From a virus (Duplodnaviria; Heunggongvirae; Uroviricota; Caudoviricetes), in IMG/VR virus record IMGVR_UViG_3300043395_001986, positions 1 through 64,000 of that record: a stretch of 64,000 nucleotides of DNA, one strand, 5' to 3'. Numbering within the stretch: position 1 is the stretch's first letter; each line of letters begins with the position of its first letter. Positions 756 to 17,792 of this stretch are shown one piece after another. A program made the position numbers and the translations under genes. The notes below the pieces were generated by a model. The model was not told the origin of the DNA and did not search any database. It worked only from the letters and a program-made list of their open reading frames with translations.

Positions 756-767
756 TACTTATAGTAT

Positions 768-1202: not shown

Positions 1203-1206
1203 TCCT

Positions 1207-1467
1207 ATGATGCTCCAACTTAATCCTATGATACCCATAGTGAGAGTTTCCGATAAGATGGAAGGGTATGCGTTCATTTGCATTGATTACTCCCAAGAAC
1301 ACAATCTACTCTTTGTATGTGCTATGGATGATGGGGAGATATGGACGTTGAACAATAAGGAAATCCGCTTTTGTAAAAACATTTCAATGGAACGAACAAA
1401 GATTAACTATGAAGAAACTAAACTACACACCGAAGAAATTGATAAACGATTTGGTCCTGGTCTTTAA
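1207..1467 (+). CDS. conserved phage hypothetical protein (LQLNP...IDY..EH...GE.WT..N..IR)
   Basis: ORF track 1183..1467; ATG at 1207/1210 avoids overlap with the upstream gene. Confidence 0.6.
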   Translation: MMLQLNPMIPIVRVSDKMEGYAFICIDYSQEHNLLFVCAMDDGEIWTLNNKEIRFCKNISMERTKINYEETKLHTEEIDKRFGPGL

Positions 1468-1612
1468 TTTAATTGCCGGCTTCTTTGCTATCCTTATGGC
1501 GACACCATTACTTATCATATTTTTTATTTATGTCCTAATTACCCGTCCTATTAAAGAGTGGTGGCGAGGTGTTAAAAAAAGAAAGCGTTATGATAGTACA
1601 TCTATACAATAA
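1409..1612 (+). CDS. small membrane protein
   Basis: Long hydrophobic stretch followed by a basic tail. Confidence 0.5.
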   Translation: MKKLNYTPKKLINDLVLVFNLIAGFFAILMATPLLIIFFIYVLITRPIKEWWRGVKKRKRYDSTSIQ

Positions 1613-2204
1613 TGGTGAACTTTGTATTCCGTTAAAACACGGATCGAGATTTTTTAAATCATATTATTACGATTTGTATCCGGATTTTAAAGAGAGTTCA
1701 TTTCGAAATATAGATGAATGGATATATGATGTAAAATGGATTATTGTTAGAGACCCGATAGAGCATTTAAAATCCGCGCTCAATACCGAGATAATGACCG
1801 ATGATATGTTAGATGATACGGAAGGAGTAATTGAGTATTTAAAAAGACATTATTATAAACCTCATTTTGGAAATCATTATGATTGTGAAATGCACAAATC
1901 ATTATACGAATCCGGATGTGATTTTAAAGTCATTGAATTAAAAAAGTTTAGTAATTTTTTAGCTTCCGAAACTGGATTATATAAACCATCTAAAAAAATT
2001 AAAGATTGGATTCCTATTGGTAAAAAAAATAAACCAATTTATATTAGTAGAGAAGAATTTTGGTATGAATTTTGTAAAAGATACCCAAAACAATCATTGG
2101 AATTAGTAGAACTTGCTTTAAAAGATAAAGAATATTATGATAAATTGTTATCCGAAAAGGAATATAAAATAGATATTAATAAAAGTTTAATAAAATTAAT
2201 ATAA
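1590..2204 (+). CDS. sulfotransferase-like protein; C-terminal KSLIKLI tag
   Basis: IPLKHGSRF (5'-PAPS loop-like) and IVRDPIEHLKS (RDP..R..S-like 3'-PAPS motif). Confidence 0.55.
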   Translation: MIVHLYNNGELCIPLKHGSRFFKSYYYDLYPDFKESSFRNIDEWIYDVKWIIVRDPIEHLKSALNTEIMTDDMLDDTEGVIEYLKRHYYKPHFGNHYDCEMHKSLYESGCDFKVIELKKFSNFLASETGLYKPSKKIKDWIPIGKKNKPIYISREEFWYEFCKRYPKQSLELVELALKDKEYYDKLLSEKEYKIDINKSLIKLI

Positions 2205-2276
2205 ACTATCAATAGGTGAAACATAAAAATAAAAAAAGAAAAATCGACTAATTCCCCCCAACCCCCCGCCGAATAA

Positions 2277-3218
2277 ATGGTAACAAACATTAATAATGAA
2301 TTCATTTTTAGAGCAAATGAGCCTCATATGGCGGAATCCGCGGAAGTGGATTATATGGGAAAACATAATATGCATTTCTTTATAACAGGTAATTTATTAG
2401 CAAAAAATAAAGAAGATGACGAATTTAGGTATGTAACTTGGAACTATTTTTTAGACCATCCACCTTTTATTGAAAAAAATAAACTTGATTTAAATTTTGT
2501 AAATACTTTTGATTTTAAATACAAAGTATTATGTTATAATAGAAGGGCACACGCTCATAGAAAGATATTAGTTTATAATATATTAAAAGATGAATTATTG
2601 AAAAATAATACATTATTTAGTTTGGGATATGAACAGGAATATAATGATAAAATAACCACAGAAATAATTGCGGGTTGTACTGAAAATTTGGTCGAAGCAA
2701 ACAATATATTTGATTATTTTACAAATTTAAAAAAAGATATATCCTTTGATAAAAATATAAATTTAAATAAACCAGATCCTGGACGTAGTTTTGTAATGAA
2801 AGATTATAAAAAAACGTTTGTATCGTTGGTAACTGAAACATTAGCTACAAATGATAAATTATTTTTTTCAGAAAAAACATATAAACCAATAGTTGCTCAA
2901 CAACCATTTATTATTATGGGAAATCCAAACTCATTAAAATACTTAAAAAGTATCGGATTTAAAACATTTGATAGGTGGTGGGATGAAAGTTATGATGAAG
3001 AAACAAATTTTAAGATACGATTTGAAAAAATATTAAATATAGTAAGAAAAATATGTAGTATGTCGTATAATGAATTATATACAATAAGAAAAGAAATTGA
3101 CTCGGTGTGTATACACAACTACAAACATTATTTAAAAAGTTCAGGTGTAACAGAAGAATTAAAAAAATTAGGGTTTATCCCACAAATATATCAAAATATT
3201 AATAGGAAATTAATTTAA
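2277..3218 (+). CDS. GT10-like putative glycosyltransferase; C-terminal RKLI tag
   Basis: VSLVTET...FFSEKTYKPIVAQQPFIIMG...GFKTFDRWWDESYD, resembling the alpha-1,3-fucosyltransferase motif. Confidence 0.55.
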   Translation: MVTNINNEFIFRANEPHMAESAEVDYMGKHNMHFFITGNLLAKNKEDDEFRYVTWNYFLDHPPFIEKNKLDLNFVNTFDFKYKVLCYNRRAHAHRKILVYNILKDELLKNNTLFSLGYEQEYNDKITTEIIAGCTENLVEANNIFDYFTNLKKDISFDKNINLNKPDPGRSFVMKDYKKTFVSLVTETLATNDKLFFSEKTYKPIVAQQPFIIMGNPNSLKYLKSIGFKTFDRWWDESYDEETNFKIRFEKILNIVRKICSMSYNELYTIRKEIDSVCIHNYKHYLKSSGVTEELKKLGFIPQIYQNINRKLI

Positions 3219-3253
3219 CTATATATTTATTATTGAATTAAAAACATATAACT

Positions 3254-3460
3254 ATGGCACAATTTAATGTTAAAGCTTCGGCTTACGGAAAAGAAGTTAT
3301 TATTGCAGTAGAAGCTGAAACTTCAGTAGAAGCAGTTGAAAAAGTAAGAAATGGTGAATATTGGGAACAAACATCATCTTTGACTGAAGGTCACGAAGTT
3401 GATTTAGGTACAGAAGAAGAGCCTAAAGGACACGAATTAGTAGTATCTATTGTAGAATAA
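3254..3460 (+). CDS. small acidic protein on an apparently monocistronic transcript
   Basis: 68 aa, Glu-rich; TATTTATT upstream, terminator downstream. Confidence 0.75.
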   Translation: MAQFNVKASAYGKEVIIAVEAETSVEAVEKVRNGEYWEQTSSLTEGHEVDLGTEEEPKGHELVVSIVE

Positions 3461-3483
3461 TAAATCTAATTAAAAATAAATTT

Positions 3484-3512
3484 AGGGGATATGAATTAAT
3501 ATCCCCTTTTTT
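3484..3512 (+). terminator. rho-independent terminator
   Basis: AGGGGATAT-GAATTA-ATATCCCCT followed by a T-tract. Confidence 0.85.
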
Positions 3513-3546
3513 AGTTTGTTTCTATTTATAAGAGATAAAATTTGTT

Positions 3547-4803
3547 ATGAATTTAGATAGTATAAAAAAGGTTTTTGTTTTACCACACTTCTCACATATT
3601 GGTTCGTTTAATGCATGGACATGTATACCAATTTTATTTGGTCATACAACCTTTGATAAAGATAAAATGTTTGATTATTATTTTAATAAACAAATACTGC
3701 ATTTAAATAATGGATTAGAAATAGAAGTATTAAACCCAAATGTAAAAGAAAATTTAAATGAAATACCAAACGAAGATGGTATCGTAAGTATATTTTATTG
3801 GAATAATTATACCGATGACAATTGGAACAGATTATTAAAATTTATAGATGGACATGATAAAAACGAAATATTAGTTTTTAGTTATGTATCCGACCCAACT
3901 CTTACTGGTAATCCACATCACCACGTTAATAGTGAAACATTAGACCAATTTTTAGGTAAAAAAGTTCGCTTCATTTCTGCATTTCCACATTCTAAACATC
4001 CAAATTACATTTATTCATTAGAAGCTGCGTATCTATGGTGGGCACATCCTGATATCAGATTTACAGAAATGTGTATGTTGGCATCAAATATTTGTCAGTA
4101 CTTACATGTACCAAAAAGAATAAGTGGATATTTCGGTAAACCTAGATGGGATAGATTGGAATTTTATAGAGAGTGTAAAGATAGTTTAAACGAAAATTTT
4201 TCATTGTATTGTGCGTTTCCAGGTGAAACGAGATTGGAAGGTAGAGATATGGGTGATACTTCTGATGTATATGATATACCAAAACCTCCTGATTTTTTTG
4301 AATACATTTCTGAAAAAAATCATTATTCAAATTTATTTTATATGAAGTCCGATGTACTATATACACATATATTATTAGGAGCAAACATATCTATTTTATT
4401 TGAATCTAATAATTGCGAAAATGAACCTGAATTATTAAAAAGATGGTGTTGGAGCGAAAAGGGATTAGGACATCTATTATTGGGTAAACCATTTTTACCA
4501 ATAGAAGCATCATCATATCTTGCTCAAAAACAAATGGGAATATTACATCCAAAGGTTATTGATTATTACGAAAATGTTGCAAATATATTAGATTTTAGTA
4601 CAAAGGATTATTCAAAAACATTATATAAACACATACATAATTTTATAAAACAAATTTTAGAAATGCCCGAAATAGAGTATAATCGGTTTTATAAAGAATG
4701 GATAATGATTTGTCAGCCGGCAAAAGAAAAAATAAAACAAAATTTTAAAGACGGTATCTTAAAAAGCGTTATTGATGAAGAAAATAGTTTATATAACTCA
4801 TAG
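3547..4803 (+). CDS. GT10-like putative glycosyltransferase
   Basis: SILFESN...WSEKGLGHLLLGKPFLPI. Confidence 0.45.
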   Translation: MNLDSIKKVFVLPHFSHIGSFNAWTCIPILFGHTTFDKDKMFDYYFNKQILHLNNGLEIEVLNPNVKENLNEIPNEDGIVSIFYWNNYTDDNWNRLLKFIDGHDKNEILVFSYVSDPTLTGNPHHHVNSETLDQFLGKKVRFISAFPHSKHPNYIYSLEAAYLWWAHPDIRFTEMCMLASNICQYLHVPKRISGYFGKPRWDRLEFYRECKDSLNENFSLYCAFPGETRLEGRDMGDTSDVYDIPKPPDFFEYISEKNHYSNLFYMKSDVLYTHILLGANISILFESNNCENEPELLKRWCWSEKGLGHLLLGKPFLPIEASSYLAQKQMGILHPKVIDYYENVANILDFSTKDYSKTLYKHIHNFIKQILEMPEIEYNRFYKEWIMICQPAKEKIKQNFKDGILKSVIDEENSLYNS

Positions 4804-5965
4804 AGGAGTAGTTTCTGAATTAGATTTAGTTCCATTGATTGGTGAAAATAATTGCCCATCCGTTAGAGAGTTTCTAAACGATGCGAATAGAGAAGATACA
4901 CATTCTTATTTTAGAACGGAAGAAGGATTTGAAATAAAAATTATTAATAGTTGGGATATTTTTAACAATGATTCATTTTTGAAAATGGATGTTGATGGTT
5001 ATGATGTTGTATTTGTTGATATATCTAATGACCCACCTCAACAATTACCATTTGATATAAGAAAATTTTTAAATAGTTTAACAAAAATACAAAATATTCC
5101 AGTATATCTATTAGCATGGAATACTGAATACAATTATAATATGAATGATGAGGTATTAAATCCCGAAATTATTTCTATTGTAAGTAACAATACTAATATA
5201 AAAATAGTAGATGGTTTATATTTTCAAGAAGATACAATCAATTCTTTGTTACTTCCACTAATGTATATGTGTAGACATACATCTGATTATGCATTAACAT
5301 ATATGGGAGCAAAAGAATATTTTCAAATCGTAAATAAACCATATAGATTCGGATTTAATCCAGGTAGATTAACTAATATCCGTAAAAAATTTTTACATAA
5401 ATTAATAGATAGTGATATTATAAACCATTATAAATTTCATTTTAGCCATAATTCATATTCTAATATTGATGTATCGGATATACCGGATAATATAATAAAA
5501 AATAATGTTACTCGTTCGTTCTTACCTATAAAAAATAAAAGGGTTAGTCATTTATATATGCAAAATGAGTCAATATTTAATGCACATCTACTTTCTGATG
5601 TTATAATATATAATGATTCATACGCATCAAGACCACTAAATGAAATATTATTTACCGAAAAAACATTTCAAATGTTAATGTTAGGTAAACCAATAATTCC
5701 ATTGGATAAAAACATTTATTTGGCAATTAAAAAAATGGGATTTAATATTGTTTCGGATATAGATGAGAGAATATATGATGAATTTGAATACGAAAACAGG
5801 TTTAATTATCTCATTTCATTTATAAAAGAAAAATTAAATATGTCAGAAACAGAATATTTAATTTGGAAAGAGGAGCAATATAAAATAGCAAAAGCAAATT
5901 CAGATAGATTGGAAACAATTTATAAAGATGGATTATTAAAAGAATTAAATATTTATAAACAATAA
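4775..5965 (+). CDS. GT10-like putative glycosyltransferase
   Basis: LFTEKTFQMLMLGKPIIP...KMGF; paralog of 3547. Confidence 0.45.
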   Translation: MKKIVYITHRGVVSELDLVPLIGENNCPSVREFLNDANREDTHSYFRTEEGFEIKIINSWDIFNNDSFLKMDVDGYDVVFVDISNDPPQQLPFDIRKFLNSLTKIQNIPVYLLAWNTEYNYNMNDEVLNPEIISIVSNNTNIKIVDGLYFQEDTINSLLLPLMYMCRHTSDYALTYMGAKEYFQIVNKPYRFGFNPGRLTNIRKKFLHKLIDSDIINHYKFHFSHNSYSNIDVSDIPDNIIKNNVTRSFLPIKNKRVSHLYMQNESIFNAHLLSDVIIYNDSYASRPLNEILFTEKTFQMLMLGKPIIPLDKNIYLAIKKMGFNIVSDIDERIYDEFEYENRFNYLISFIKEKLNMSETEYLIWKEEQYKIAKANSDRLETIYKDGLLKELNIYKQ

Positions 5966-6007
5966 AGGTTACTTATTATTCACGAAACCAAAACTTAATG
6001 GACGAGG

Positions 6008-6244
6008 GTGATAAACAGAATAAAGAAACTCAAAGAGAGAGAACACCGATTGACGGTATACAAAGATACTTCGCTAATGTTAGCGATGTTCTTTCTTCCG
6101 TTTGGCTACGATGCCCTATTCAAAATGATTATGGATATTACAGATTCATATTGGATAGCAGACGTAGTTTTTTATTCTATTTCAGGATGTTTTTGGTTAT
6201 CGTATATCTTTCTTTCGAATTATATAAACAAACTAAATAAGTAA
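6008..6244 (+). CDS. small membrane protein (2 predicted TM segments)
   Basis: GTG start, two hydrophobic segments. Confidence 0.6.
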   Translation: MINRIKKLKEREHRLTVYKDTSLMLAMFFLPFGYDALFKMIMDITDSYWIADVVFYSISGCFWLSYIFLSNYINKLNK

Positions 6245-6248
6245 CACT

Positions 6249-6374
6249 ATGGCAAAAGCAAAATCAGCTAGTTCTAACAAAGTATCCTTTGGAAAAAGAA
6301 AAACAGGAAAAGCAGTAAAAAGTTATAACAAACATGATAGAAAAGAAAAAAATTACAGAGGACAAGGTAGATAA
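6249..6374 (+). CDS. small basic protein ending YRGQGR (absent from ORF track)
   Basis: Hand translation MAKAKSASSNKVSFGKRKTGKAVKSYNKHDRKEKNYRGQGR, 41 aa; resembles small basic YRGQG-terminal proteins of large phages. Confidence 0.7.
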   Translation: MAKAKSASSNKVSFGKRKTGKAVKSYNKHDRKEKNYRGQGR

Positions 6375-7440
6375 TATTGTATTAGCAGGATGCTCCTTTT
6401 CTGATACTGGAATTAGGTTTCCTAACGAACCTGTTTTAGTAAAACAAATTAATTACGATAATGAATTAATAGATGTGGGTGGATTACCTGGAGAAGCTAA
6501 AAATCAACATTTTATTGAAATTGAACTTAATAACCAAAACAAACAACATAATGTAACATTGTATAATGTTGCAAGAGGTTCGTTTGGTAATCATGTTATA
6601 ACACATAGATTTAAAGAAAAGGTAAACGATATATTAGAACAAAATCCAAACGCTAAAATAGTTGGTATCGTTCAATTAAGTGCATTATTAAGAGCAGATT
6701 CTGTTCAGGTAGAAATCAACACAAAAGATTTTCCATTTGATTATGAAAATCCTTTTTTAAAACAAAAAATATATTCATTAGAAACTTTTTACGAAAAGCA
6801 TTTAGATAATATTATTGATTTAAAACAATTTTGCGATTCAAAAAATATTGAGGTGTTAGTTTACTTTGGTTGGGCAAATCTATATAGTAATTATTTTTCT
6901 CAATATCCTAATTTAATTCCAAAATTAAATAAAGTTAAAGAAATTGTTACATTTATAGAATATGATGTACATGAAGACGAATGTGCAAATTATTGTGCTG
7001 GACCTAAAAACGTAACTTCTAAATATTTTAAAACTATTGATGAAAAAGAAATAGAAATATATAAATTAGGTGCAGATAATTTTGGCGGAATTGCAGAATA
7101 CGCTAGAGAAAAATTGGAAATAGGATATCGTTATATTTCTTGGTTTGATGCACATCCATCAACTGCTTCTCATTTTCTTTGGTACAAAGATATAGTAAGA
7201 CCATTTTTATTAAAAACGGGTGTATTAAATCCAGAATCAGAATTTCCTAAAAATGTAGAAAATAATTTAAAAGTTATATGCGATGTTCAAAAAAAAAGAT
7301 TTATTAAATGGTTTGGATTAGAATATGTGCATGAAGATGCACACGCTACATTTAAACGATATAAAGATACCTGGTATAAATCAATGTCTTACGAAATTGA
7401 ATATGTATTAGAAGAAAAAGTAAAACAATTTAGTAAGTGA
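6334..7440 (+). CDS. SGNH/GDSL-like hydrolase or acyltransferase
   Basis: Block I GCSFS, block II ARGSFGN, block V DAHP. Confidence 0.65.
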   Translation: MIEKKKITEDKVDNIVLAGCSFSDTGIRFPNEPVLVKQINYDNELIDVGGLPGEAKNQHFIEIELNNQNKQHNVTLYNVARGSFGNHVITHRFKEKVNDILEQNPNAKIVGIVQLSALLRADSVQVEINTKDFPFDYENPFLKQKIYSLETFYEKHLDNIIDLKQFCDSKNIEVLVYFGWANLYSNYFSQYPNLIPKLNKVKEIVTFIEYDVHEDECANYCAGPKNVTSKYFKTIDEKEIEIYKLGADNFGGIAEYAREKLEIGYRYISWFDAHPSTASHFLWYKDIVRPFLLKTGVLNPESEFPKNVENNLKVICDVQKKRFIKWFGLEYVHEDAHATFKRYKDTWYKSMSYEIEYVLEEKVKQFSK

Positions 7441-8147
7441 AAACATTAGCAGAAATACAAAACGATTATGGTTTTTATGAAAAAGAAACCGATACACGTT
7501 TTACTCTAAATGGTATTTATCCAGAACATCAAATAGTAAAGGATTACCCATCTTTGGATTCAAAAGAGTGGAAGTTAATACCAAATAATGAAGATGTTTA
7601 TATTCCATTCTTTATTAAGATAGGAGATACCAAATATATTTGTGAAATGTTATATAAAGAATTATATCAAAGTTATTCCGAAGGTAATATGTATTTTACA
7701 TTAGATGATATATTGGGAATAGATATAGATACAACAAAAACTTACAATTATATAGTAGAAAAATATAAAGATAAATTAAAAGATGCTGGCATAGAGGAAT
7801 TTAAATTACATTCTAACGATGGAAATAGACCAACGGATATTGATATATTAAATCAATTTTTATATCTATTCGGTAAGAATGCAGATAGAGTTCATGCAAA
7901 GTATAAACTAAAAAGATTATTTGATGCAAACGATAATCCAACTGCAGATTTTCCTGCTAATGTAGCGGCATCTAAAGCAGCAAGAGATAAAATAAGAAGT
8001 GTAGACCAATATTTAGTAGATACTACTTCTACAAGCTCTACCCAAACATCGCAAACATACAATGTATCGACTCCACAAAAACCAGCACAATCACAAACAA
8101 CCTTACAGCAACTTTGGGGAGGATTTAAATCAATATTTGGTGGTTAA
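7437..8147 (+). CDS. hypothetical protein
   Basis: 236-aa ORF, GTG start, S/T/Q-rich tail. Confidence 0.6.
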   Translation: MKTLAEIQNDYGFYEKETDTRFTLNGIYPEHQIVKDYPSLDSKEWKLIPNNEDVYIPFFIKIGDTKYICEMLYKELYQSYSEGNMYFTLDDILGIDIDTTKTYNYIVEKYKDKLKDAGIEEFKLHSNDGNRPTDIDILNQFLYLFGKNADRVHAKYKLKRLFDANDNPTADFPANVAASKAARDKIRSVDQYLVDTTSTSSTQTSQTYNVSTPQKPAQSQTTLQQLWGGFKSIFGG

Positions 8148-8163
8148 TTAATATTTATAGTAT

Positions 8164-8541
8164 ATGGATATTCGTAAACTAGATAAAATGGTTGATATGT
8201 ATGTAAAGGTAGATTGGAGAAATTACTTTGATGAGGCAGCATCTCCTGCTGTACACAACTACATTAATAATAATGCAGATACAATTTATCCTTGGTTGTT
8301 TGATGTAATAAAGCATGCAATAGAAAAAAAATTAGAAGAAGTAGCAATTGTAAAATTCATTGACTCTAAAATGTATGCTACTATAAAAAAAGAAGATTAC
8401 CCTGATTTATTAGAAAAAATAATGAATCATCATATTATAAAAGAAGAATATGAAAAATGTGCAAGCATACGAGATATGATTGCAGATTTAAAAAATCCAA
8501 AAAAATTAAAAAGAAAATATACTAAAAAAACTCCAAAATAA
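8164..8541 (+). CDS. UVR (UvrB/C) motif protein
   Basis: EEYEKCASIRD matches E.YE.AA..RD. Confidence 0.6.
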   Translation: MDIRKLDKMVDMYVKVDWRNYFDEAASPAVHNYINNNADTIYPWLFDVIKHAIEKKLEEVAIVKFIDSKMYATIKKEDYPDLLEKIMNHHIIKEEYEKCASIRDMIADLKNPKKLKRKYTKKTPK

Positions 8542-8551
8542 ATTAAATAAT

Positions 8552-9112
8552 ATGGAAAGGTTACATACATTTAAAAATTTTCTTTCAAAAGAAGAATGTT
8601 ATTCTATTTTAGAAAAATATAAAGTAGAATTAAATTTAAAACCAGCCGAGATTCAATTCAATGGCCAAAAAGTTGTTAACGATAAAAGAAAATCATCCAT
8701 AGCCTTTATAGATAATATAAATGAAATAGATGAACGATTAAAAGATACTTTAAAAAATCTCATACAATTAAAAGGATATGAACTTACTGGATTAGGTCCG
8801 TATCAATTTACTGAATATAAAACTGGAGAATACTATGCTTGGCATACGGATTCTTCAAATGAGCCGGAATATAAAGATAGATTCTGTTCTATTGTCATTC
8901 AACTAAATGATGAATATAGTGGTGGATATTTACAATTAATAGATGAAAGTGAGGATAATATATATCAATGCGATCATGGAGTCGGTACAATGTATATATT
9001 TTATTCAAACATAAAACATAGAGTTATACCAGTAACAGAAGGAGTTAGATATTCCCTAGTTAATTGGGTTTCATTGAAAAAATTAAATGATTTCAAAAAA
9101 ACATTAATATAA
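8552..9112 (+). CDS. 2OG-Fe(II) oxygenase (prolyl-hydroxylase-like); KKTLI tag
   Basis: WHTD...KHRVIPVTEGVRYSLVNW. Confidence 0.9.
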   Translation: MERLHTFKNFLSKEECYSILEKYKVELNLKPAEIQFNGQKVVNDKRKSSIAFIDNINEIDERLKDTLKNLIQLKGYELTGLGPYQFTEYKTGEYYAWHTDSSNEPEYKDRFCSIVIQLNDEYSGGYLQLIDESEDNIYQCDHGVGTMYIFYSNIKHRVIPVTEGVRYSLVNWVSLKKLNDFKKTLI

Positions 9113-9879
9113 TGCTTATTGATGATAAATTTATATTTGTTTCATTGCCAAGAAGAGCATCAACTTCATTTCATTATTCGTGTTTACTAAATGGATTGAA
9201 TGTAAAAAATATAGGCCCAGTTGATTGGAGTATAGCAAATTCTAAAATTGATTTTAAAAATATAAATGAATCAAATATAATGGATTATATAGCTCATGGA
9301 CATGAGAGAATTGTTGAAGAAAAAATGATATACGGAAACATATATCCAATCATTGCAATATATAGAAATAGACATGAATCATTTTATTCTTATTTTAAAC
9401 ATTTAATTTACGATTTAAACAGAGCAGGATTCACAAAAATAGCTAAACATCTTTCAGAATTACAAACAAAAGATTTATTTTTTTTTAAAACAAATGATTT
9501 AAAATCATCAACATCACGTAGTGAAGTAATAATAAATTATTTATATGATAATAAATTAATTGAAAAAAAAAGTTATAAAAAATCAAAAAATCAAATTTTA
9601 AATACGGACGAATATGTCATAAATGTGATAGATATACTACTGGCTCCTACATCTCATTGGCATAATAACGATACTGATATAATTTGGTTTGATATAAATA
9701 ATTTATCAAAATTAGAAGAATGGGTATCAAACATTACAAATAAGCCATTTAAATTAAAAAAATTAAATTCAAATAATAAAATTAAATGTAATTTAGAATT
9801 AAACGAAGAATTTATTTATTATTATAATAATGTTTATGATTACTATGATTTACCTAAAAATAAAAAAACATTAATATAA
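9112..9879 (+). CDS. sulfotransferase-like protein; KKTLI tag
   Basis: FIFVSLPRRASTSF (PAPS loop), RNRHESFYS. Confidence 0.65.
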   Translation: MLIDDKFIFVSLPRRASTSFHYSCLLNGLNVKNIGPVDWSIANSKIDFKNINESNIMDYIAHGHERIVEEKMIYGNIYPIIAIYRNRHESFYSYFKHLIYDLNRAGFTKIAKHLSELQTKDLFFFKTNDLKSSTSRSEVIINYLYDNKLIEKKSYKKSKNQILNTDEYVINVIDILLAPTSHWHNNDTDIIWFDINNLSKLEEWVSNITNKPFKLKKLNSNNKIKCNLELNEEFIYYYNNVYDYYDLPKNKKTLI

Positions 9880-11087
9880 TGAAAAATATTGTTATAGTAG
9901 GTGGTGGAACAGCTGGTTGGCTATCTGCATTTTTTTTAAAAAAAAATTATAAAGATTGTAATATATGTTTAATAGAAAGTTCTAAAATTGGAATATTAGG
10001 AGCAGGCGAAGGTGCAACACCAAATCTCCAATCAATGCTTATTCAAGGATTTGGGTTTAATGAGGAAGATTTTTTAAAGAAAATAAATGGAACAAAAAAA
10101 TATGGAATTAATTTTACTAATTGGAGTAGGGATTTAAATAAAAATTTTGTTCATGGGTTTGAAGAAGATGGGACTGAAAACGAAATATATTCTTATCATT
10201 TTAATGCAAGATTGTTTTCAGAATATTTAAAAAATAAAAATATAGAAAAAGGTGTTCGGCACATAGATGCAGAAATTGATAAATTTGTAAAAAAAAATAA
10301 TAAAATAAAAAAAATTATTTTAAAAAATGGAGAAGAAGTAAAAACAGATTTTGTAATAGATTGTTCCGGATTTGCAAGATTAATTATAGGAAATGAATAT
10401 AATACAAAATGGAATTCATATGAAGATGAATTATTAGTTAATTCCGCTATACCATTTTTTATAAAAGAAGAAAATAATAATATAAATCAAAAAACAACAG
10501 CAGAAGCAATAGATTGGGGCTGGATGTGGAAAATCCCACTCAAAGATAGATGGGGATGTGGCTATCTGTATAATGATAACATGATAGATGATGATTTTAT
10601 TCAAAAGGAAATTTATAGATTATATGGTGATAAAAATATACAAATCAATAAAAAAATAAAATTCAAACCGGGTTCATATGAAGATGTATGGGTAGAAAAT
10701 TGTGTAGCAATTGGATTATCTAGTGGGTTTTTAGAACCATTAGAAGCAACTTCTATAATGACAATTGTATTTCAATTAAGACAATTATCTAATAATATTT
10801 TCGATGATTCAAAAAGAAATGAATACAATTATAATGTAAAGCAATTTAATTTTCAAAATATGATGTTTATACGACATCATTATAATTGTGATAGATGTGA
10901 TACTGAATTTTGGCGAACATATAAGTCCAAAAAAATACCAAATATTTTACAAGAAATTTATGATTCATTTTATACTAAAAAAACATTATCTGATATTTTT
11001 AAAACAGAGTATTTAGCTTTTACAAAAAAACAATATATACATATATATAATAATAATTTTAGTAAAAATAAAAAAACACTAATATGA
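9879..11087 (+). CDS. flavin-dependent tryptophan halogenase family protein; KKTLI tag
   Basis: GGGTAGW, GAGEGATP, K..I.F.NW, GWMWKIP (WxWxIP), FLEPLEATSI. Confidence 0.9.
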   Translation: MKNIVIVGGGTAGWLSAFFLKKNYKDCNICLIESSKIGILGAGEGATPNLQSMLIQGFGFNEEDFLKKINGTKKYGINFTNWSRDLNKNFVHGFEEDGTENEIYSYHFNARLFSEYLKNKNIEKGVRHIDAEIDKFVKKNNKIKKIILKNGEEVKTDFVIDCSGFARLIIGNEYNTKWNSYEDELLVNSAIPFFIKEENNNINQKTTAEAIDWGWMWKIPLKDRWGCGYLYNDNMIDDDFIQKEIYRLYGDKNIQINKKIKFKPGSYEDVWVENCVAIGLSSGFLEPLEATSIMTIVFQLRQLSNNIFDDSKRNEYNYNVKQFNFQNMMFIRHHYNCDRCDTEFWRTYKSKKIPNILQEIYDSFYTKKTLSDIFKTEYLAFTKKQYIHIYNNNFSKNKKTLI

Positions 11088-11725
11088 CTTTTCTAGAAGA
11101 AATAAAATTTAGTCCTACTTTATCAATATGGAAATCGAAATTTGATTTAACAAATAGAAATAAATTAATACAAGAATGCGAAGAACATATAAAAAACTTA
11201 CCGGACGTTTGGAATGATGGATATGGTTACTATATGAATGATAGTTTAAAATATAAAGGATATGTTGATATACCAATAGAAAAAGAACTAGATTCAATTA
11301 TGTTGACAGCAATTAATGAATGTATTGAGATATACTCTGAAAAATTTAATGAAATTAAAGCAGATATATGGATAAATGTTGTTAGAGCAAAAAATCCAAT
11401 ACAAAAAAACTATAAATCAAATGGAGGTTTAATTTTTCATAATCATGTTGATTTAAATATTAAAAATAAATTAACACCACCATTATATACTTTTGTTTGT
11501 TATATACAAATGCCAGATAATCTAACCAATGATGATGGTGTATTATTTATGGAAGATGTTGATAAATCAGTTTTTTCAATATTACCAAAAGATGGTGATA
11601 TATTGATTATGAAAGGTGATTTACCGCATGTTCCAAACTATGCACCAAATTCTACAAAAGATAGAATTGTATTAGCAGGTAGTGTTAGAATGGATTTTTC
11701 TAAATTAAATAAAAGTTTAATATAA
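11084..11725 (+). CDS. 2OG-Fe(II)/DSBH oxygenase-like protein; NKSLI tag
   Basis: WIN...HNH...YIQMP...LPH...RIVLAG. Confidence 0.7.
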   Translation: MTFLEEIKFSPTLSIWKSKFDLTNRNKLIQECEEHIKNLPDVWNDGYGYYMNDSLKYKGYVDIPIEKELDSIMLTAINECIEIYSEKFNEIKADIWINVVRAKNPIQKNYKSNGGLIFHNHVDLNIKNKLTPPLYTFVCYIQMPDNLTNDDGVLFMEDVDKSVFSILPKDGDILIMKGDLPHVPNYAPNSTKDRIVLAGSVRMDFSKLNKSLI

Positions 11726-12450
11726 TGTTAGTAGAAAATAAATTTATATACCTTAATTTACCAAGATGCGCATCTACATCATTTCATATAGCATGCCTTA
11801 AATACGAATTGGATATTAAATATTATGATGATATTATTCATACATTAAATCCACCAAAATTAAATAAAAATGATAACAATGAAATAATAGCTGATAATTT
11901 ATCACATACACATGAAAAGTTAATTAATTTGCAAAAAAAATTTGGTTATGATTTACCTGTTATTGCTGTAAAAAGGAATTCATATGAAAGGTATATATCA
12001 TTATGGAAACATATAATAGATGAACTTTATAGAATAGGTGAATTTGAAACTTTTAATATATTTAAGTCTTTAAATGTTGATGAATTATTATCATATACAG
12101 AAATTGATATATCATCAAATGAGAAAAAATATGAGTTTATAAAAAAATTCTTTAAAAGATACAACATTCCCAGAACCGATGCATATGTAACCGCAATGAT
12201 ATATATGATTATGAGTCCAACTTCACATTGGCATAATCATAATAAATCAATTATATGGTTTGATATACAAAATATAAAAGAATTAGAAAATTGGGTATCT
12301 GAAAAATTAAGTTTTGATTTTAAATTGGAAAAAACAAATTCAAGTCAACACTTTGAATGTAATATAATAAATGATGAATATTTTAAAAAAAAGTATGATT
12401 CTATATATAAAAATTATGATAACCCAAAAAATATTAAATCGTTAATATAA
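11725..12450 (+). CDS. sulfotransferase-like protein, paralog of 9112; IKSLI tag
   Basis: FIYLNLPRCASTSF, RNSYERYISLW, shared PTSHWHN. Confidence 0.7.
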   Translation: MLVENKFIYLNLPRCASTSFHIACLKYELDIKYYDDIIHTLNPPKLNKNDNNEIIADNLSHTHEKLINLQKKFGYDLPVIAVKRNSYERYISLWKHIIDELYRIGEFETFNIFKSLNVDELLSYTEIDISSNEKKYEFIKKFFKRYNIPRTDAYVTAMIYMIMSPTSHWHNHNKSIIWFDIQNIKELENWVSEKLSFDFKLEKTNSSQHFECNIINDEYFKKKYDSIYKNYDNPKNIKSLI

Positions 12451-12451
12451 T

Positions 12452-12739
12452 ATGATAAATTTTAAAGAAATATTTATTGCTTGGAAAACATCATTTAATC
12501 CAAGCGAATCGGAATCAAAAATTGCAAAAGATAGATTAGAAATTTGTATAAGTTGTGAATATAAAAAAGAAGTTTTTGAAAAAAAAGAATGGTCGGCAAT
12601 ATGTGGTAAATGTGGATGTCCATTAATGAAAAAAGTATTTTCAAAAGAAATTAACCCATGTCCAATGGGATATTGGATGGAATCGGATAATAAAAATGGA
12701 TTAACTATTCAAACAAAAAATAAAAAATCGTTTTTATAA
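12452..12739 (+). CDS. small Cys-rich metal-binding protein; KKSFL tag
   Basis: RLEICISC...CGKCGCP...CPMGYW. Confidence 0.65.
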   Translation: MINFKEIFIAWKTSFNPSESESKIAKDRLEICISCEYKKEVFEKKEWSAICGKCGCPLMKKVFSKEINPCPMGYWMESDNKNGLTIQTKNKKSFL

Positions 12740-12747
12740 ACTTAACA

Positions 12748-12755
12748 TATTTATA
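12748..12755 (+). promoter_or_regulatory. putative phage late promoter TATTTATA before the Hint protein
   Basis: The same motif recurs in most intergenic gaps. Confidence 0.55.
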
Positions 12756-12773
12756 AATGTAAATAAAAAAATT

Positions 12774-14267
12774 ATGAAAGGTACAATAATAGGAAGTGAT
12801 TTATTACAAAAAGAAGATTCGGTAAAAGTCATTGAAATAAATACAAATACAACCATTTACAATGATGGTGCTGAATTTTTAGACTATACGGCACTATTTT
12901 CGGTTTTGGTAGCAAATAATATAAATGAATTACATTTTATATACACAGCTGGAAATAGTTATCTACCAACCAATGCAGCATCATTTGTATTTGAAGATAA
13001 ATTAAAAGAAAAATGTTTAGAACACAATATAGAATATTATCCTTATATAGTTCCTGCTAATTCAATTACAATACCATATGTTGAAGATGCATCAAATAAA
13101 TTTATTTTAAGACAAGCATTTGATACTACCGCATTAGTTGATGAAACATATTGTGCAGATAAATTTGAATTTTTAAATTTAATGAGTGGTTCAAATTATA
13201 TACCAAATACATTTTTTAATGATTCCGATTTAGGATTTGATACAATAAATTCTATAAATTTAGAAAATCCAAATGAACCAAATTATATTATAAAATCTAA
13301 AAGTCCAAGATACGATTCAAAAAACTATCCTGCAATATACGGAATAGAAACAGAAAATGAACTAATTGATTTAAAAAATTCTCTTCCTTCTGACCATTTA
13401 ATTCAAGAATTTATTTATGATGATTTAAATATTATAGATGGTAAATGGGCTGTTATAAGAAGTATTGATATTATATATGGAAACGAATTAGATGTTATTA
13501 ATATGGGAGGATATACCCATTCTACCAGAATACCTTTAAGTTTTGCATCAAATGAATTTGTAGAAGGTACTAAAAAATATAATCAAAAGACAAGATACAA
13601 ATATATTAATAAACAATTAGGAAATTTTGCAACAATAGATTATCACGTAGATAGTGATACAATGATATTAGATTATACAGGTTCGTTAGTAGATGTTGAT
13701 ACTATTCAATTGGGAACATTTGTAAAATCAGTAGATTTCACAGATTTAAGTGGTAGTTCAATACAACATAACATATCTGATATTACAACGTTTGGCTGGG
13801 ATGGTACTTTAGAAAAAACAATTGAAACATTAACGGATATAACATCATCATTGGTTGGATTATCTTCTGCTTCTGTTGATACTATTTTTGTAAAAATAAC
13901 ATTAGAAAATGGATTAAATTGGGATGATTCACCATCTGCAACTTACTATATTGAAGAGTCTGGCTCATTATCAACAAGATGGGAAAAGATTAATAATATG
14001 TATATTGGTGATAAATTGATTGTAAAAAACAATACCACAAATCAATTAGAAACGATAGAAATAACTAATTTAGAAATGGTATATGCACAGAAAACAATAT
14101 ATGATTTAGACTTTGAAGATTCTGATTTGTTTTTAGTTGATATTGGAGATGGATTATTTGGTATAATGCACAACAGCTGTTGGTGTTGTGGTAACCCATG
14201 CGGACACTGGTGTTGTTCACAATATTGCCCAATCTGCTACCAAAACTTACCTCCCGGATGTAAATAA
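12774..14267 (+). CDS. circularly permuted ATP-grasp-like + Hint domain + C-terminal Cys-rich peptide fusion
   Basis: N-terminal GSD...VIEINTN, later DKFEF, YIIK, LIQEFI; Hint about aa 291-467 ending IYDLDF...MHN; then SCWCCGNPCGHWCCSQYCPICYQNLPPGCK. Confidence 0.7.
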   Translation: MKGTIIGSDLLQKEDSVKVIEINTNTTIYNDGAEFLDYTALFSVLVANNINELHFIYTAGNSYLPTNAASFVFEDKLKEKCLEHNIEYYPYIVPANSITIPYVEDASNKFILRQAFDTTALVDETYCADKFEFLNLMSGSNYIPNTFFNDSDLGFDTINSINLENPNEPNYIIKSKSPRYDSKNYPAIYGIETENELIDLKNSLPSDHLIQEFIYDDLNIIDGKWAVIRSIDIIYGNELDVINMGGYTHSTRIPLSFASNEFVEGTKKYNQKTRYKYINKQLGNFATIDYHVDSDTMILDYTGSLVDVDTIQLGTFVKSVDFTDLSGSSIQHNISDITTFGWDGTLEKTIETLTDITSSLVGLSSASVDTIFVKITLENGLNWDDSPSATYYIEESGSLSTRWEKINNMYIGDKLIVKNNTTNQLETIEITNLEMVYAQKTIYDLDFEDSDLFLVDIGDGLFGIMHNSCWCCGNPCGHWCCSQYCPICYQNLPPGCK

Positions 14268-14284
14268 TTAAATTAAAAAATATT

Positions 14285-14422
14285 ATGGCAAATAAAAGAA
14301 TAGAGAGACCATCTCAAATAATCAAAGTAGATATAAAACCTATATCAAACGAATTAAAGACAAAAATAGCAACGGCATTTCAAACAATTGTATCAAAAAT
14401 TAAAGAAAAACATTTATCTTAA
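14285..14422 (+). CDS. small basic 45-aa protein (absent from ORF track)
   Basis: Hand translation MANKRIERPSQIIKVDIKPISNELKTKIATAFQTIVSKIKEKHLS; fills the gap, A-rich leader. Confidence 0.65.
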   Translation: MANKRIERPSQIIKVDIKPISNELKTKIATAFQTIVSKIKEKHLS

Positions 14423-14454
14423 TTTTGATAATATTGTATTTTTGATAAATTGTT

Positions 14455-15003
14455 ATGTTAACCAACTTTTCACACACTGCTCTTTTTACTTCCGATGAAA
14501 TAAACAAAATATTAAATCATATGGGAGAAACATCGGATACACTATATCCGGTTTATATGGATGGGAATTGGAATGATATTGGTTGTAAAATGCAAAGTAG
14601 CGATTTGGAATGGAATGATGAGATTAATTGGTTTTTTATAAAATTATCAAAATGGATTGATAGTTTACAATTAGGTATAAAATTAGTAAATCCCCCACAT
14701 GCTGTATTTAGAAAGTATGTAGTTGGGGATTTTTTTATTAAACATATAGACCAACCTCCCAACCCAAAACCAATAAGATATATGTCGGTTTGTATTCAAC
14801 TTTCAAACGAATCGGAATATGAAGGTGGAAATGTATATGTTTATGCAAAAAATAATAAACAATTAATACCAAAAACAATAGGATATACTTACGCATTTGG
14901 AATAAAAGTTCCACATGAAGTAACACCGATTACAAACGGAATACGAAAATCGCTGACTATATTTGTAAGTGAAAATCATATTAAAAGAACTAATTTATTA
15001 TAG
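14455..15003 (+). CDS. 2OG-Fe(II) oxygenase; RTNLL tag
   Basis: KHID...PHEVTPITNGIRKSL. Confidence 0.9.
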   Translation: MLTNFSHTALFTSDEINKILNHMGETSDTLYPVYMDGNWNDIGCKMQSSDLEWNDEINWFFIKLSKWIDSLQLGIKLVNPPHAVFRKYVVGDFFIKHIDQPPNPKPIRYMSVCIQLSNESEYEGGNVYVYAKNNKQLIPKTIGYTYAFGIKVPHEVTPITNGIRKSLTIFVSENHIKRTNLL

Positions 15004-16077
15004 ATGTCATTTGATTTAAAAGATTATATTTGCACAATTCCTTTTAAAAGATTAGAAATACACCCAGAAGCGTATGCATTATGTTGTCCTGAATGGTTAA
15101 AAAAACGTTTACCAAAAGGAATTGATAAACTGCCGGATGTATGGAATTCCGAGGAATCTACTGAAATAAGGAAATCAATAGTAGATGGTAGTTATAAATA
15201 CTGCAGTCACATTACGTGTCCACATTTAAGCGAATTAAAAAATTTAAAAAATAAAAATGTATCACCTATAAAACATAGAAAGGAATTAGATGATGATTTT
15301 TGGGATGTATATGATGAAGTAACTGGTAGAATGAAAATAGGCCCAAGAACTATTCACATGAGTTTTGACCTAACATGTAATTATAAATGTCCATCTTGTA
15401 GGGTTGAAATGTTTGTAGAAAATTCAGAAGGTATAAAAAGAATCAATACTACAATTGAGGAAATGGAAAAATTATTTGCAAAAGATTTAGAATTAATATA
15501 CACCATAGGTAGTGGTGACCCATTTGCATCGGTTGCATTTAGAAACTATTTAAGAAATTTTGACCCTAAAAAATATCCAAAATTAAAAACTATAATGTTG
15601 CACACAAATGCTTCTCTTTGGAATAAAAAAATGTGGGATAGTATGCCAAACATACACAAATATGTAACAACTTGTGAAATATCAATTGATGCGGGTACAA
15701 AACATACATACGAAAATGTAACAAGATTAGGTGGTAATTGGGAAAATCTAATGGATAATTTAAATTTTATATCAACAATACCTAATTTAAAAGTTATTAG
15801 AACATCCTTTGTTGTACAACAGGCAAATTATACAGAAATGGAAATATTTTTACAAAAAATGAGAAATATTTTTACAAAAAATGGAAAAGTATATTTTGGT
15901 AGAGTAACAAAATGGGGACACATTTCTGAATCTACTTTTAAATTTTTAGATGTTGCGAATCCTGAGCATCCTGAACATCAGCTATTTTTAAATGAATTAA
16001 AAAAGGTCTCACACAATCCATATGTATTACATAATATGTACGAATTATCTCAATCAAAAAATTTAAATTTGATATAA
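15004..16077 (+). CDS. radical SAM protein with N-terminal SPASM/twitch-like Cys cluster; NLNLI tag
   Basis: CNYKCPSC; N-terminal C..PF...CC...W...C....CP. Confidence 0.9.
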   Translation: MSFDLKDYICTIPFKRLEIHPEAYALCCPEWLKKRLPKGIDKLPDVWNSEESTEIRKSIVDGSYKYCSHITCPHLSELKNLKNKNVSPIKHRKELDDDFWDVYDEVTGRMKIGPRTIHMSFDLTCNYKCPSCRVEMFVENSEGIKRINTTIEEMEKLFAKDLELIYTIGSGDPFASVAFRNYLRNFDPKKYPKLKTIMLHTNASLWNKKMWDSMPNIHKYVTTCEISIDAGTKHTYENVTRLGGNWENLMDNLNFISTIPNLKVIRTSFVVQQANYTEMEIFLQKMRNIFTKNGKVYFGRVTKWGHISESTFKFLDVANPEHPEHQLFLNELKKVSHNPYVLHNMYELSQSKNLNLI

Positions 16078-16078
16078 G

Positions 16079-16603
16079 ATGATATGGATAAGTGAAAATT
16101 TTAATAGACTATCGAATAGTGAATTAGAATTTCTAAAAAATAAGTGCAAGAATTTTATTTTAACAGAATCTCCAATATTATATAATAATGGTTTAACTAA
16201 AAATTATTATCATAGATATAAATTTAATGTTGATGATTTAGAATTTAAAGAAATAATTAATAAAATAACGGAACATATAAAAAAAGAAACAAATCACAAT
16301 GAGATTGAATTATGGACTATCCAAATAAATAAAATATTCGAAGGGTCTAATGAGGAAGATGAATTGCATGTAGATAGTTGTGATTTAACTTTTATATTGT
16401 ATCTAAATAATGAGTTTGAAGGTGGTGAGTTTGAATATATAAATCAAGATAAAAAAATTATAAAAATAAAACCAAAAGAAAATTTTTCTATAATATCAAA
16501 CGATAAATTAATACACAGAGTATTACCAGTAAGTAGTGGAGAAAGATTTAGTTTGGTTATGTTTTTTAATATAGGTAAAAAAAATAAATTAACTTTAATT
16601 TAG
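16079..16603 (+). CDS. 2OG-Fe(II) oxygenase; KLTLI tag
   Basis: LHVD...YLN..FEGG...HRVLPVSSGERFSLV. Confidence 0.9.
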   Translation: MIWISENFNRLSNSELEFLKNKCKNFILTESPILYNNGLTKNYYHRYKFNVDDLEFKEIINKITEHIKKETNHNEIELWTIQINKIFEGSNEEDELHVDSCDLTFILYLNNEFEGGEFEYINQDKKIIKIKPKENFSIISNDKLIHRVLPVSSGERFSLVMFFNIGKKNKLTLI

Positions 16604-16612
16604 TTGTTTATT

Positions 16613-17131
16613 ATGAAAATTTTAATAATTTCATTACCTAGAACTGGTTCAACATCGTTAATGAAACTAACAGCAAAAAAACATAATTTAAATTATATAC
16701 ACGAGCCGTTTAATAAAATATTTTACGAAAAATATAAAAATTATGATTGGATATCTAATGATAATTATGTTATAAAATCTATTATAGACCAATTACCAGA
16801 AGGTGAGACGGACATAATATCTTACTGGGAAAAGTTTCATAAAAATTTTGATAAAATCATATTACTTTCAAGAAAAGATTTGGTTGATTGTTCCAAAAGT
16901 TTAGCATATGCAGCATACCACACCGAAAAAGCATATTGGTCAAACAAATACATATGGGAATTAACACCAAATTTAGAAGAAACTTATAGATATATTATAT
17001 TTTTGAATAAATTAATGTTTGATATAAAAAATAGATTAAATTTAGATATAATATATTATGAAGATATTTTTGATATAAATTCAGATGAAAGATTAAGAAT
17101 TAATAAAAATATAAAAAAAAAGTTATTATAA
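16613..17131 (+). CDS. sulfotransferase-like (Stf0-like) protein; KKKLL tag
   Basis: ISLPRTGSTSL, HEPF, LSRKD, IYYEDI. Confidence 0.75.
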   Translation: MKILIISLPRTGSTSLMKLTAKKHNLNYIHEPFNKIFYEKYKNYDWISNDNYVIKSIIDQLPEGETDIISYWEKFHKNFDKIILLSRKDLVDCSKSLAYAAYHTEKAYWSNKYIWELTPNLEETYRYIIFLNKLMFDIKNRLNLDIIYYEDIFDINSDERLRINKNIKKKLL

Positions 17132-17264: not shown

Positions 17265-17792
17265 ATGCTAAAACAAATTGTTACAATTTTAATTCTTTTT
17301 TCATTCCTTTCTTGTAAAAAAGAAGAACCAATAATAGTAAAAAAAGAAAATGTCTATAAAATAGAAATAGACGGGAGATTACCATTTGATGTAAATGGGT
17401 ATTATCATCTTAAATTGGATTCTACAAAAAACCAAACAATTCATAGAATTTCTGGATCATTAAGATTAAATGGAGAAATACCATTTCCTTCTGAAAAAAT
17501 CGAATGGAATAGTAATTTGTATTGGTATATAGTTCAAGGAGATACAATTGCTAGGATAACAAAAACATATATAAATTATTTCACAGGTAATGTTACTGTC
17601 GTATCTTTACCACCATTAGTTTCAAATAAAACCGAATTAGTACCAACAATAAATTCAGCTAGTTATAGTGGATATGGTGTTGGTGATATCAATACCGTCA
17701 TTGCACCCATATATAAAATGAAAGGTGATACAATGATAATTAAAGCATCAATCGAAAAAGAATTTAAAATAACAAAAATAGTATTAGAATGA
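17265..17792 (+). CDS. putative lipoprotein
   Basis: Signal peptide with lipobox FLSC followed by KKEE. Confidence 0.7.
   Translation: MLKQIVTILILFSFLSCKKEEPIIVKKENVYKIEIDGRLPFDVNGYYHLKLDSTKNQTIHRISGSLRLNGEIPFPSEKIEWNSNLYWYIVQGDTIARITKTYINYFTGNVTVVSLPPLVSNKTELVPTINSASYSGYGVGDINTVIAPIYKMKGDTMIIKASIEKEFKITKIVLE

Follow-up and report, generated by a model that had tools for sequence, protein, structure and literature searches.

A tailed-phage ATP-grasp ligase with a one-sided Hint domain and a cysteine-rich C-terminal tail

Described counterparts of the locus

Hint domains are known for protein splicing, for hedgehog-type processing and for toxin release in bacterial polymorphic toxin systems. 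In engineered C-terminal-cleaving mini-inteins position 1 is mutated and cyclisation of the terminal Asn alone frees the following segment, a reaction used to produce tag-free proteins. Here we describe a one-sided Hint domain flanked within one polypeptide by an amide ligase and a small peptide of apparent disulfide type, in a family of several hundred members found only in tailed phages. It was recognized in a 64,000-nt stretch of DNA (hereafter the window), the first 64 kb of the 237,307-bp virus record IMGVR_UViG_3300043395_001986, which CheckV rates as complete. A preliminary description of the window, made from the sequence alone, had singled out a cysteine-rich segment with atypical codon usage and taken it for an exchangeable core, toxin or metal-binding peptide; its observation was confirmed, and its interpretation is partly supported. 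The segment (14175-14264) is no separate gene. It is the C-terminal end of a 497-aa open reading frame (ORF), P0001, identified from the ORF list and its translation at 12774..14267 on the plus strand. Structure alignment, supplemented for the second domain by a family profile, divides the protein into an N-terminal ATP-grasp amide-ligase domain of the GspS/YgiC type (aa 1-282, 12774..13619), a Hint domain (aa 288-467, 13635..14174) and, by translation and homolog alignments, a Cys-rich tail of 30 residues and 3355 Da (aa 468-497, 14175..14264), all on the same strand. The plus strand carries all but one of the window ORFs of at least 110 aa, and no paralog of P0001 was found within the window.

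Among the closest counterparts of P0001 are the PT-HINT domains (PF07591) of bacterial polymorphic toxins. There, too, a Hint domain directly precedes a variable C-terminal module thought to be released, and the C-terminus diversifies behind a conserved body. In contrast to them, P0001 has no nucleophile at position 1, its cargo is a 30-aa Cys peptide and not an enzyme toxin, and its carrier is a phage ligase instead of a secreted toxin stalk; moreover, the downstream gene for a 45-aa protein is conserved whatever the type of tail, and so does not behave as a matching immunity gene. The bacterial intein-like (BIL) domains, Hint domains that occur in variable proteins and bring about cleavage instead of splicing, are among the best structural matches: Z scores in VIA-align were 15.8 for BIL2 of Tetrahymena BUBL (6tmm/6y75; the aligned entry is 6tmm) and 15.5 for the Clostridium thermocellum BIL domain 2lwy. 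Unlike the A-type BIL domains with their N-terminal Cys, the P0001 family has His291 and would make at most a C-terminal cut. P0001 also resembles the engineered mini-inteins, since its first nucleophile is gone and Asn cyclisation could free what follows; the latter are laboratory mutants, whereas here the one-sided state occurs in nature and has been conserved in hundreds of phage genes.

The N-terminal domain is, judging by its modelled structure, an ATP-grasp amide ligase of the circularly permuted type represented by glutathionylspermidine synthetase (GspS) and E. coli YgiC/YjfC (7uka/7uk8). VIA-align superposed residues 1-281 on YgiC 7uka with Z 10.2 (root-mean-square deviation (rmsd) 4.0, 202 residues aligned) and the domain on GspS 2io7 with Z 9.4 (rmsd 4.3, 206 aligned), and Foldseek matched it to 7uk8 at E 1e-5; the next structural matches were glutathione synthetases and the E-64 ligase Cp1B. 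The D-x11-E-x-N motif of this class is found at the N-terminus of P0001, where it is invariant or nearly so: E21 and N23, as well as R113 and D123, do not vary among 120 sequences with identities as low as 22%, and conservation of D9 is at least 90%. Given this invariance the ligase looks active, and D9, E21 and N23 are the predicted Mg2+-binding residues. P0001 differs from GspS and YgiC in the fusion of the ligase to a Hint domain, in a predicted need for a separate 45-aa subunit and in lacking a sequence-level family match, as neither Pfam nor NCBIfam gave an ATP-grasp or GSP_synth match and the family profile found no GspS/YgiC chain at E <= 10.

For the tail, the nearest analogy is provided by knottins, defensins and other small disulfide-rich peptides, with which it shares six to eight Cys within about 25 residues, even Cys counts, and conserved cysteines separated by variable loops. 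In contrast to these peptides the tail lacks a signal peptide, and for it neither a sequence nor a fold match was found (the best matches among PDB sequences, fibronectin modules and TAX1BP1 at E 1.5-3, are at chance level). Moreover, knottins and defensins are released by separate proteases, whereas the tail of P0001 would be released by the built-in Hint domain.

No paper or curated family describing the ligase-Hint-Cys-tail layout was found. Searches of PHROGs, Pfam and NCBIfam with the whole protein returned only sub-threshold noise (Imm26, NusB), and tblastn against 50,697 phage records gave no match, which shows only that no cultured relative was seen. Metagenomes contain more than 620 homologous proteins of about 495 aa at E <= 1e-3. 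The family forms 264 clusters at 50% identity, all of its Atlas clusters belong to Uroviricota, and IMG/VR holds 241 loci of the family on contigs of up to 333 kb. The comparisons below concern a close family of 118 homologs with 57-86% identity and a wider family of 120 members extending down to 22% identity.

Hint domain, tail cysteines and proposed release of the tail

The AlphaFold2 (AF2) model of P0001, built from an alignment of 120 homologs, has a predicted local distance difference test (pLDDT) score of 90.8 and a predicted template modelling (pTM) score of 0.87, and it indicates that residues 288-467 form a true Hint fold. Besides the BIL domains, VIA-align matched these residues to the NpuDnaB intein 4o1r (Z 15.9, rmsd 2.1, 139 aligned) and to hedgehog 1at0 (Z 15.4). 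Foldseek gave template modelling (TM) scores of 0.78-0.79 to hedgehog and RecA mini-intein chains and E-values of 1.8e-8 to 1e-5 against many inteins. The same assignment follows from the family profile, which matches the KlbA intein 2jmz at E 1.3e-8. The Pfam Hint families, PT-HINT included, do not match P0001 at E <= 1; the PT-HINT model does match the second Hint domain of the relatives P0121, P0222 and P0229. No canonical intein family was found in the phage genome.

In the structural alignment His291 takes the place of intein residue 1 (the Cys1 position), and Asn467 that of the terminal Asn. Position 1 is most commonly His or Lys in the 120 members; others have Ile or Gly, and at least four have Ser. 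In the Thr-x-x-His motif of block B, the His column is occupied by Ser, Ala or Cys in the KlbA profile alignment (SPSATY, residues 386-391). Since both the position-1 nucleophile and the block-B His are lost, the machinery of the first splicing step is gone. The pair H466-N467 is invariant in the 118 close homologs, and HN is found in 114 of the 120 members of the wider family. The +1 residue, Ser468 in the window, is Ser, Thr or Cys in only 26 of the 120, the remainder having Ala, Pro, Tyr, Val, Ile, Leu, Gly and others, and splicing is therefore excluded. With splicing excluded and HN kept, cyclisation of the Asn with C-terminal cleavage is the sole intein-type reaction left.

The tail itself reads SCWCCGNPCGHWCCSQYCPICYQNLPPGCK and is followed by a TAA stop codon at 14265-14267. 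It holds nine Cys, and the unit WCC occurs twice, at 14181-14189 and 14208-14216, each time spelled TGGTGTTGT; on recount these numbers agreed exactly with the preliminary description. The identical spelling is no evidence of a DNA duplication, because TGT accounts for 84% of the Cys codons in the window and the chance of two identical WCC spellings is about 0.5. Cys makes up 30% of the tail, arranged in C-x-C, CC and C-x-x-C motifs, and the 30 residues include two Trp, two Tyr and one His. The Cys set consists of six positions invariant in the family, 469, 471, 476, 480, 485 and 488, of the covarying pair C472/C481 and of the lineage-specific C496. Lys497 is the only Lys of the window's own tail. 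Every tail in the family holds a Lys, usually no more than two residues from the C-terminus, and 107 of 109 close homologs, like 48 of 68 representatives, have exactly one.

Cys counts in the tails are even. Among representatives at 50% identity with tails of 10-100 aa, all 60 have 4, 6, 8, 10 or 12 Cys (binomial p = 1.7e-18), and the Cys segments that stand before a second Hint or an S74 domain have even counts too. In the close family, 62 members have six Cys, 53 have eight, and three, the window's own lineage with its extra C496, have nine. The second Cys of each WCC unit, at C472 and C481, is present at both positions in 56 close homologs and at neither in 59. As the two appear or vanish together, the duplicated WCC of the preliminary description is best taken as a single additional Cys pair; this covariation may be a single evolutionary event and for that reason weighs less than the family-wide parity. 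Even counts favour fully paired disulfides, three or, in this clade, four, over the use of Cys for metal binding or thioethers. A search of the phage genome for an Erv1/ALR thiol oxidase gave no match, though control genomes gave none either. Of the three kinds of peptide suggested initially, a knottin-like one thus fits best, given the parity and the covariation of C472 with C481, while the metallothionein is disfavoured by the even-Cys rule and by the Trp and Tyr content, and on these grounds the ranthipeptide, too, seems less likely.

These results lead us to propose, with about even confidence, that a 3.4-kDa disulfide peptide is set free through cyclisation of Asn467, perhaps once it has been modified by the ligase. 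Asn467 would cyclise to a succinimide, breaking the Asn467-Ser468 bond, and the freed peptide would fold into a knot with three or four disulfides on meeting an oxidising environment, such as that found after lysis. Before the tail is detached, its single Lys or its C-terminal carboxylate may be modified by the ligase, acting with the downstream 45-aa protein. HN is lost in three of the eight members with tails of 3-7 aa and in three of the 112 with longer ones (Fisher p = 0.0036), and this concentration in short tails links HN to having something to release. In addition, some relatives have a second self-cutting module, Hint or Peptidase_S74, C-terminal of the Cys segment, which fits a free-standing product.

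The candidate partner of the ligase is encoded 17 nt after the stop codon of P0001, by a 45-aa ORF ending in KHLS (14285..14422, plus strand) that is conserved in homolog loci. Of 80 homolog loci, 78 have such an ORF at a distance of 12-51 nt downstream, its His43 is invariant in 52 sequences, and it is kept in distant relatives without a Cys tail, which have only Hint domains or tails of 5-7 aa after His-Asn. Within the family its conservation extends further than that of the Cys tail. A model of the complex of P0001 with the 45-aa protein scored an ipSAE of 0.81, compared with 0.00 for the best of three controls; this value is reached by 58 of 80 solved complexes and by 2 of 110 mismatched pairs, counts that apply only roughly because the model was built with our own alignments. 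Three runs share at least 89% of contacts, with a partner pLDDT of at least 78, and the modelled interface lies on the ATP-grasp sheet, adjoining E21 and N23. Its conservation whatever the tail type and its predicted binding to the ligase make the 45-aa protein look like a ligase subunit or substrate. For the same two reasons it is not expected to be an immunity protein matched to the tail.

Several observations weigh against release. The block-F His is replaced by Asp451, and D444, at the position of the block-F Asp, is variable; in view of these non-canonical residues we can only infer the cleavage. P0001 has no signal peptide and is made in the reducing cytoplasm. The fold of the tail is not predicted with confidence: in the full-length AF2 model residues 472-497 have a pLDDT below 50 and appear disordered, without confident contact with the body, and the tail folded alone from an alignment of 109 tail sequences reached a mean pLDDT of 51 and a pTM of 0.17. 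The window's own tail has the odd number of nine Cys, C496 being common to two close relatives. Finally, the Cys peptide is not essential to the family, because in eight members the tail is Cys-free and measures 3-7 aa, and it is not evident what the removal of a pentapeptide would serve.

Should release occur, large aquatic phages would make small, stable and fast-evolving Cys peptides without a protease or a secretion signal, which raises the question of what phages shed into water at lysis; the family would also offer a natural self-cleaving scaffold for the production of disulfide peptides. The even-Cys rule and the single conserved Lys lead to concrete predictions that are cheap to test.

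Alternative readings and inheritance of the tail

A less likely reading is that the tail stays attached, as a structural, redox-sensing or docking knob or as a plug regulating the ligase, with His-Asn kept for structural reasons in a degenerate Hint domain. The splicing machinery is indeed partly degenerate (His291, no block-B His, Asp451 for the block-F His), yet HN is at least 95% conserved at 22% identity despite the variable loop. Short Cys-free tails exist, as this explanation would allow, but it is preferentially with very short tails that HN decays. The S74-bearing relatives resemble trimeric fibre proteins, which keep a mature C-terminal tip, and in relatives the gene is followed, after a few kb, by large S74 fibre genes; on the other hand, relatives add a second self-cutting module beyond the Cys segment, and the absence of confident contacts between tail and body in the model argues in the same direction.

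The release of the tail could be part of a larger scheme, which we advance tentatively, in which P0001 is a one-polypeptide peptide factory of large aquatic phages. The body would serve as leader, tailoring enzyme and leader peptidase, and the knotted peptide would act extracellularly after lysis. In such a scheme the body and the 45-aa subunit would modify the tail Lys or the C-terminus, neighbouring enzymes with a common C-terminal tag of the K-x-L-I type may be recruited, and Asn cyclisation would release a peptide acting as a toxin, a receptor blocker or a signal. If true, this would give Hint domains a new function and would amount to a new way of making ribosomal peptide natural products.

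A related proposal, which extends the release of the tail and does not exclude it, would make the tail a core similar to those of peptides made on ribosomes and modified after translation (RiPPs), tailored by the neighbouring enzymes, with the 467-aa body as leader and the Hint domain as built-in leader peptidase. We consider it unlikely. The gene does lie inside an enzyme block, conserved in the window and in relatives down to about 30% identity, that encodes a Trp halogenase, 2-oxoglutarate (2OG) oxygenases, sulfotransferase-like proteins and a radical S-adenosylmethionine (SAM)-like protein; such adjacency is weak evidence, because gene order is conserved throughout these related phages, and the enzyme set differs between relatives. 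The ORF at 15004-16077 scored 23.8 bits against Radical_SAM, below the Pfam cut-off of 29.5, and has no SPASM match. Ranthipeptide and sactipeptide precursors are short leader-core peptides encoded beside a radical SAM-SPASM maturase, whereas the tail is fused to a 467-aa enzyme. In favour of the proposal, Trp470 is 97% conserved in close homologs, but a thioether use of Cys would not predict even counts. Iyer et al. 2010 (PMC2938197) considered similar arrays in cyanophages, with dioxygenases, halogenases and sulfotransferases, and proposed that they act on peptides or metabolites; a P0001-type protein is not mentioned in that paper.

Still less favoured is a metal-binding tail, whether a zinc cluster, an iron-sulfur ligand or a metallothionein-like peptide. 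Its C-x-C, CC and C-x-x-C motifs with 30% Cys and one His would suit such a role, as would synthesis in the cytoplasm, where thiols stay reduced, and the neighbouring 95-aa protein and radical-SAM-like gene are likewise Cys-rich. Metal sites, however, demand no even counts, and yet all 60 are even, while the commonest counts, 6 and 10, are no multiples of 4; moreover, metallothioneins are nearly free of aromatics, whereas Trp and Tyr abound in the tail, and the loops between its Cys evolve fast with their spacing kept.

Whether the tail is an exchangeable cargo has two answers. It follows an intein-type His-Asn at the end of what is modelled as a true Hint fold, as a cargo should, but no swapping was seen among related phages. 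The break in conservation between HN and Ser468 that such swapping would leave is not found in the close homologs, where the mean majority fraction is 0.69 for residues 468-488 and 0.66-0.75 for the body; only the last nine residues drop, to 0.36. C469, C471, C476, G477 and C485 are invariant in the 118 homologs, and C480 and C488 are conserved at 97-99%. Tail identity follows body identity (r = 0.68), which argues against exchange between phages. The part after His-Asn is truly modular at deep divergence alone (22-48% identity).

In the wider family the tails measure from 3 to 273 aa after His-Asn. Plain tails, nearly all Cys-rich, are found in 83 of the 120 members; in 6 a Cys segment is followed by a canonical Hint domain starting with Cys (PT-HINT / Intein_splicing), and in 9 by a self-cleaving chaperone, Peptidase_S74. 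Another 14 have one or two Hint domains and no Cys segment, and the remaining 8 have the short Cys-free tails of 3-7 aa, each with a Lys. Tail type is mostly inherited: it needs 17 changes on the core tree, versus 35.7 with shuffled labels. The second Hint differs between sisters in three well-supported pairs (P0129/P0130, P0122/P0124 and P0131/P0133) and, being present or absent in such pairs, behaves as a mobile insertion. In P0121, P0122, P0127-P0129 and P0131 it starts with Cys, ends in HN-K and sits between the Cys segment and the final Lys-containing residues (an example is L006:3394-5274). Ordinary splicing by this second domain is excluded, since its +1 residue is Lys, Ala or Val. In P0150, P0154-P0156, P0162, P0169, P0170, P0173 and P0189, a Cys segment of 40-87 aa precedes Peptidase_S74 (for example L088:1423-3366), an intramolecular-chaperone domain otherwise typical of trimeric tail fibres and spikes. 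Most of the S74-bearing members would end in K-S or similar after S74 cleavage.

The codon usage of the tail is atypical, as the preliminary description had noted. Its counts for 14169-14264, 46.9% GC and 12 of 32 codons ending in C, are exact. For the 30 tail codons GC is 46.7%, compared with 26.3% in the remaining gene, and resampling of the tail amino acids with the codon usage of the window gives an expectation of 40.1 +/- 2.1% (p = 0.005). Thus amino acid composition (Cys, Trp, Gly, Pro), which had been considered beforehand as a possible sole cause, explains most of the rise and leaves a remainder. Ten of the 30 tail codons end in C, against 2.9 expected (p = 2e-4). In a sliding scan of all 18,198 thirty-codon segments in 62 ORFs of the 64-kb window, 14166-14255 ranked first for this excess (12 observed, 3.2 expected, z = 5.36; the runner-up had 4.69).

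The excess of C in third codon positions (C3) is confined to the lineage of the window. The closest relatives, at 86% identity and with the NLPPGCK ending kept, have a tail C3 of 0.13 against 0.11 expected. An excess at p < 0.05 is seen in only 16% of 79 homolog tails, and a family-wide trait was accordingly rejected. Compared with L001, the tail shows five synonymous changes toward C and one away, and the gene body 17 each way. When the codons of 60 non-redundant homolog tails were pooled, this window left out, AAC made up 46% of Asn codons (24% in the background) and CAC 72% of His codons (34%), TGC and TAC being unbiased; at 14193-14195 (Asn474) and 14205-14207 (His478) this looks like site-specific retention of two C-ending codons. 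RNA structure was rejected as a cause, the minimum free energy being -24.5 versus a shuffle mean of -27.6 kcal/mol (z = +0.92), and no Rfam family was significant in 13500-15000. The anomaly is real and small, and no explanation was found for it.

That GC and C-ending codons mark a swapped cargo newly imported from a GC-richer phage is highly improbable: the excess is the strongest in the window, and the first 21 tail codons match the 76%-identity relative L007 at 78% of nucleotides and the closest relative L001 at 70%, but inheritance accounts for three of the ten C-ending codons (AAC474 and CAC478 family-wide, CCC494 in common with L001-L003), the remaining excess amounts to five synonymous changes in 30 codons, body and tail identity correlate, and the closest relatives share the tail protein, NLPPGCK ending included, with ordinary codons, so that the C-ending codons mark no imported segment.

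Gene neighbourhood

Upstream of P0001, a 95-aa Cys-containing, zinc-ribbon-like protein is encoded at 12452..12739 on the plus strand, with homologs beside the genes of the family. Its pattern is C-x2-C ... C-x2-C-G-C ... C, and Pfam gave only weak matches to DUF6171 and FtrD-like families, below the cut-off, for the protein and four homologs. Homologs adjoin the ligase-Hint gene in the loci L001, L005 and L006 and its relatives at 31-33% identity in L087, L088 and L090; a further homolog is found in L092.

Thirteen otherwise unrelated proteins of the enzyme block (window positions 3-17131) end in a common pattern, a basic residue, any residue, [L/S/T/F], [L/I] and [L/I], as in KKTLI, NKSLI, KKSFL and KLTLI. 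The homologs of the 95-aa protein in distant phages end alike (KNKLL, KKSIL and KKSLI; L087:1832-2119, L088:3538-3864 and L090:125-388). As the ending is kept despite a different arrangement of downstream genes, a protein-level tag is likelier than a by-product of overlapping start sites.

A 175-aa ORF at 17265-17792 begins with MLKQIVTILILFSFLSCKKEE, which resembles a lipoprotein signal peptide with a lipobox Cys. Such a start is unusual inside a phage enzyme block, and the ORF has no Pfam match. In two relatives, genes of more than 1350 aa (L004:13961-17488 and L005:14301-17491), one of them with Peptidase_S74, lie about 4.5 kb downstream of the ligase-Hint gene. The enzyme block thus adjoins probable tail-fibre genes.

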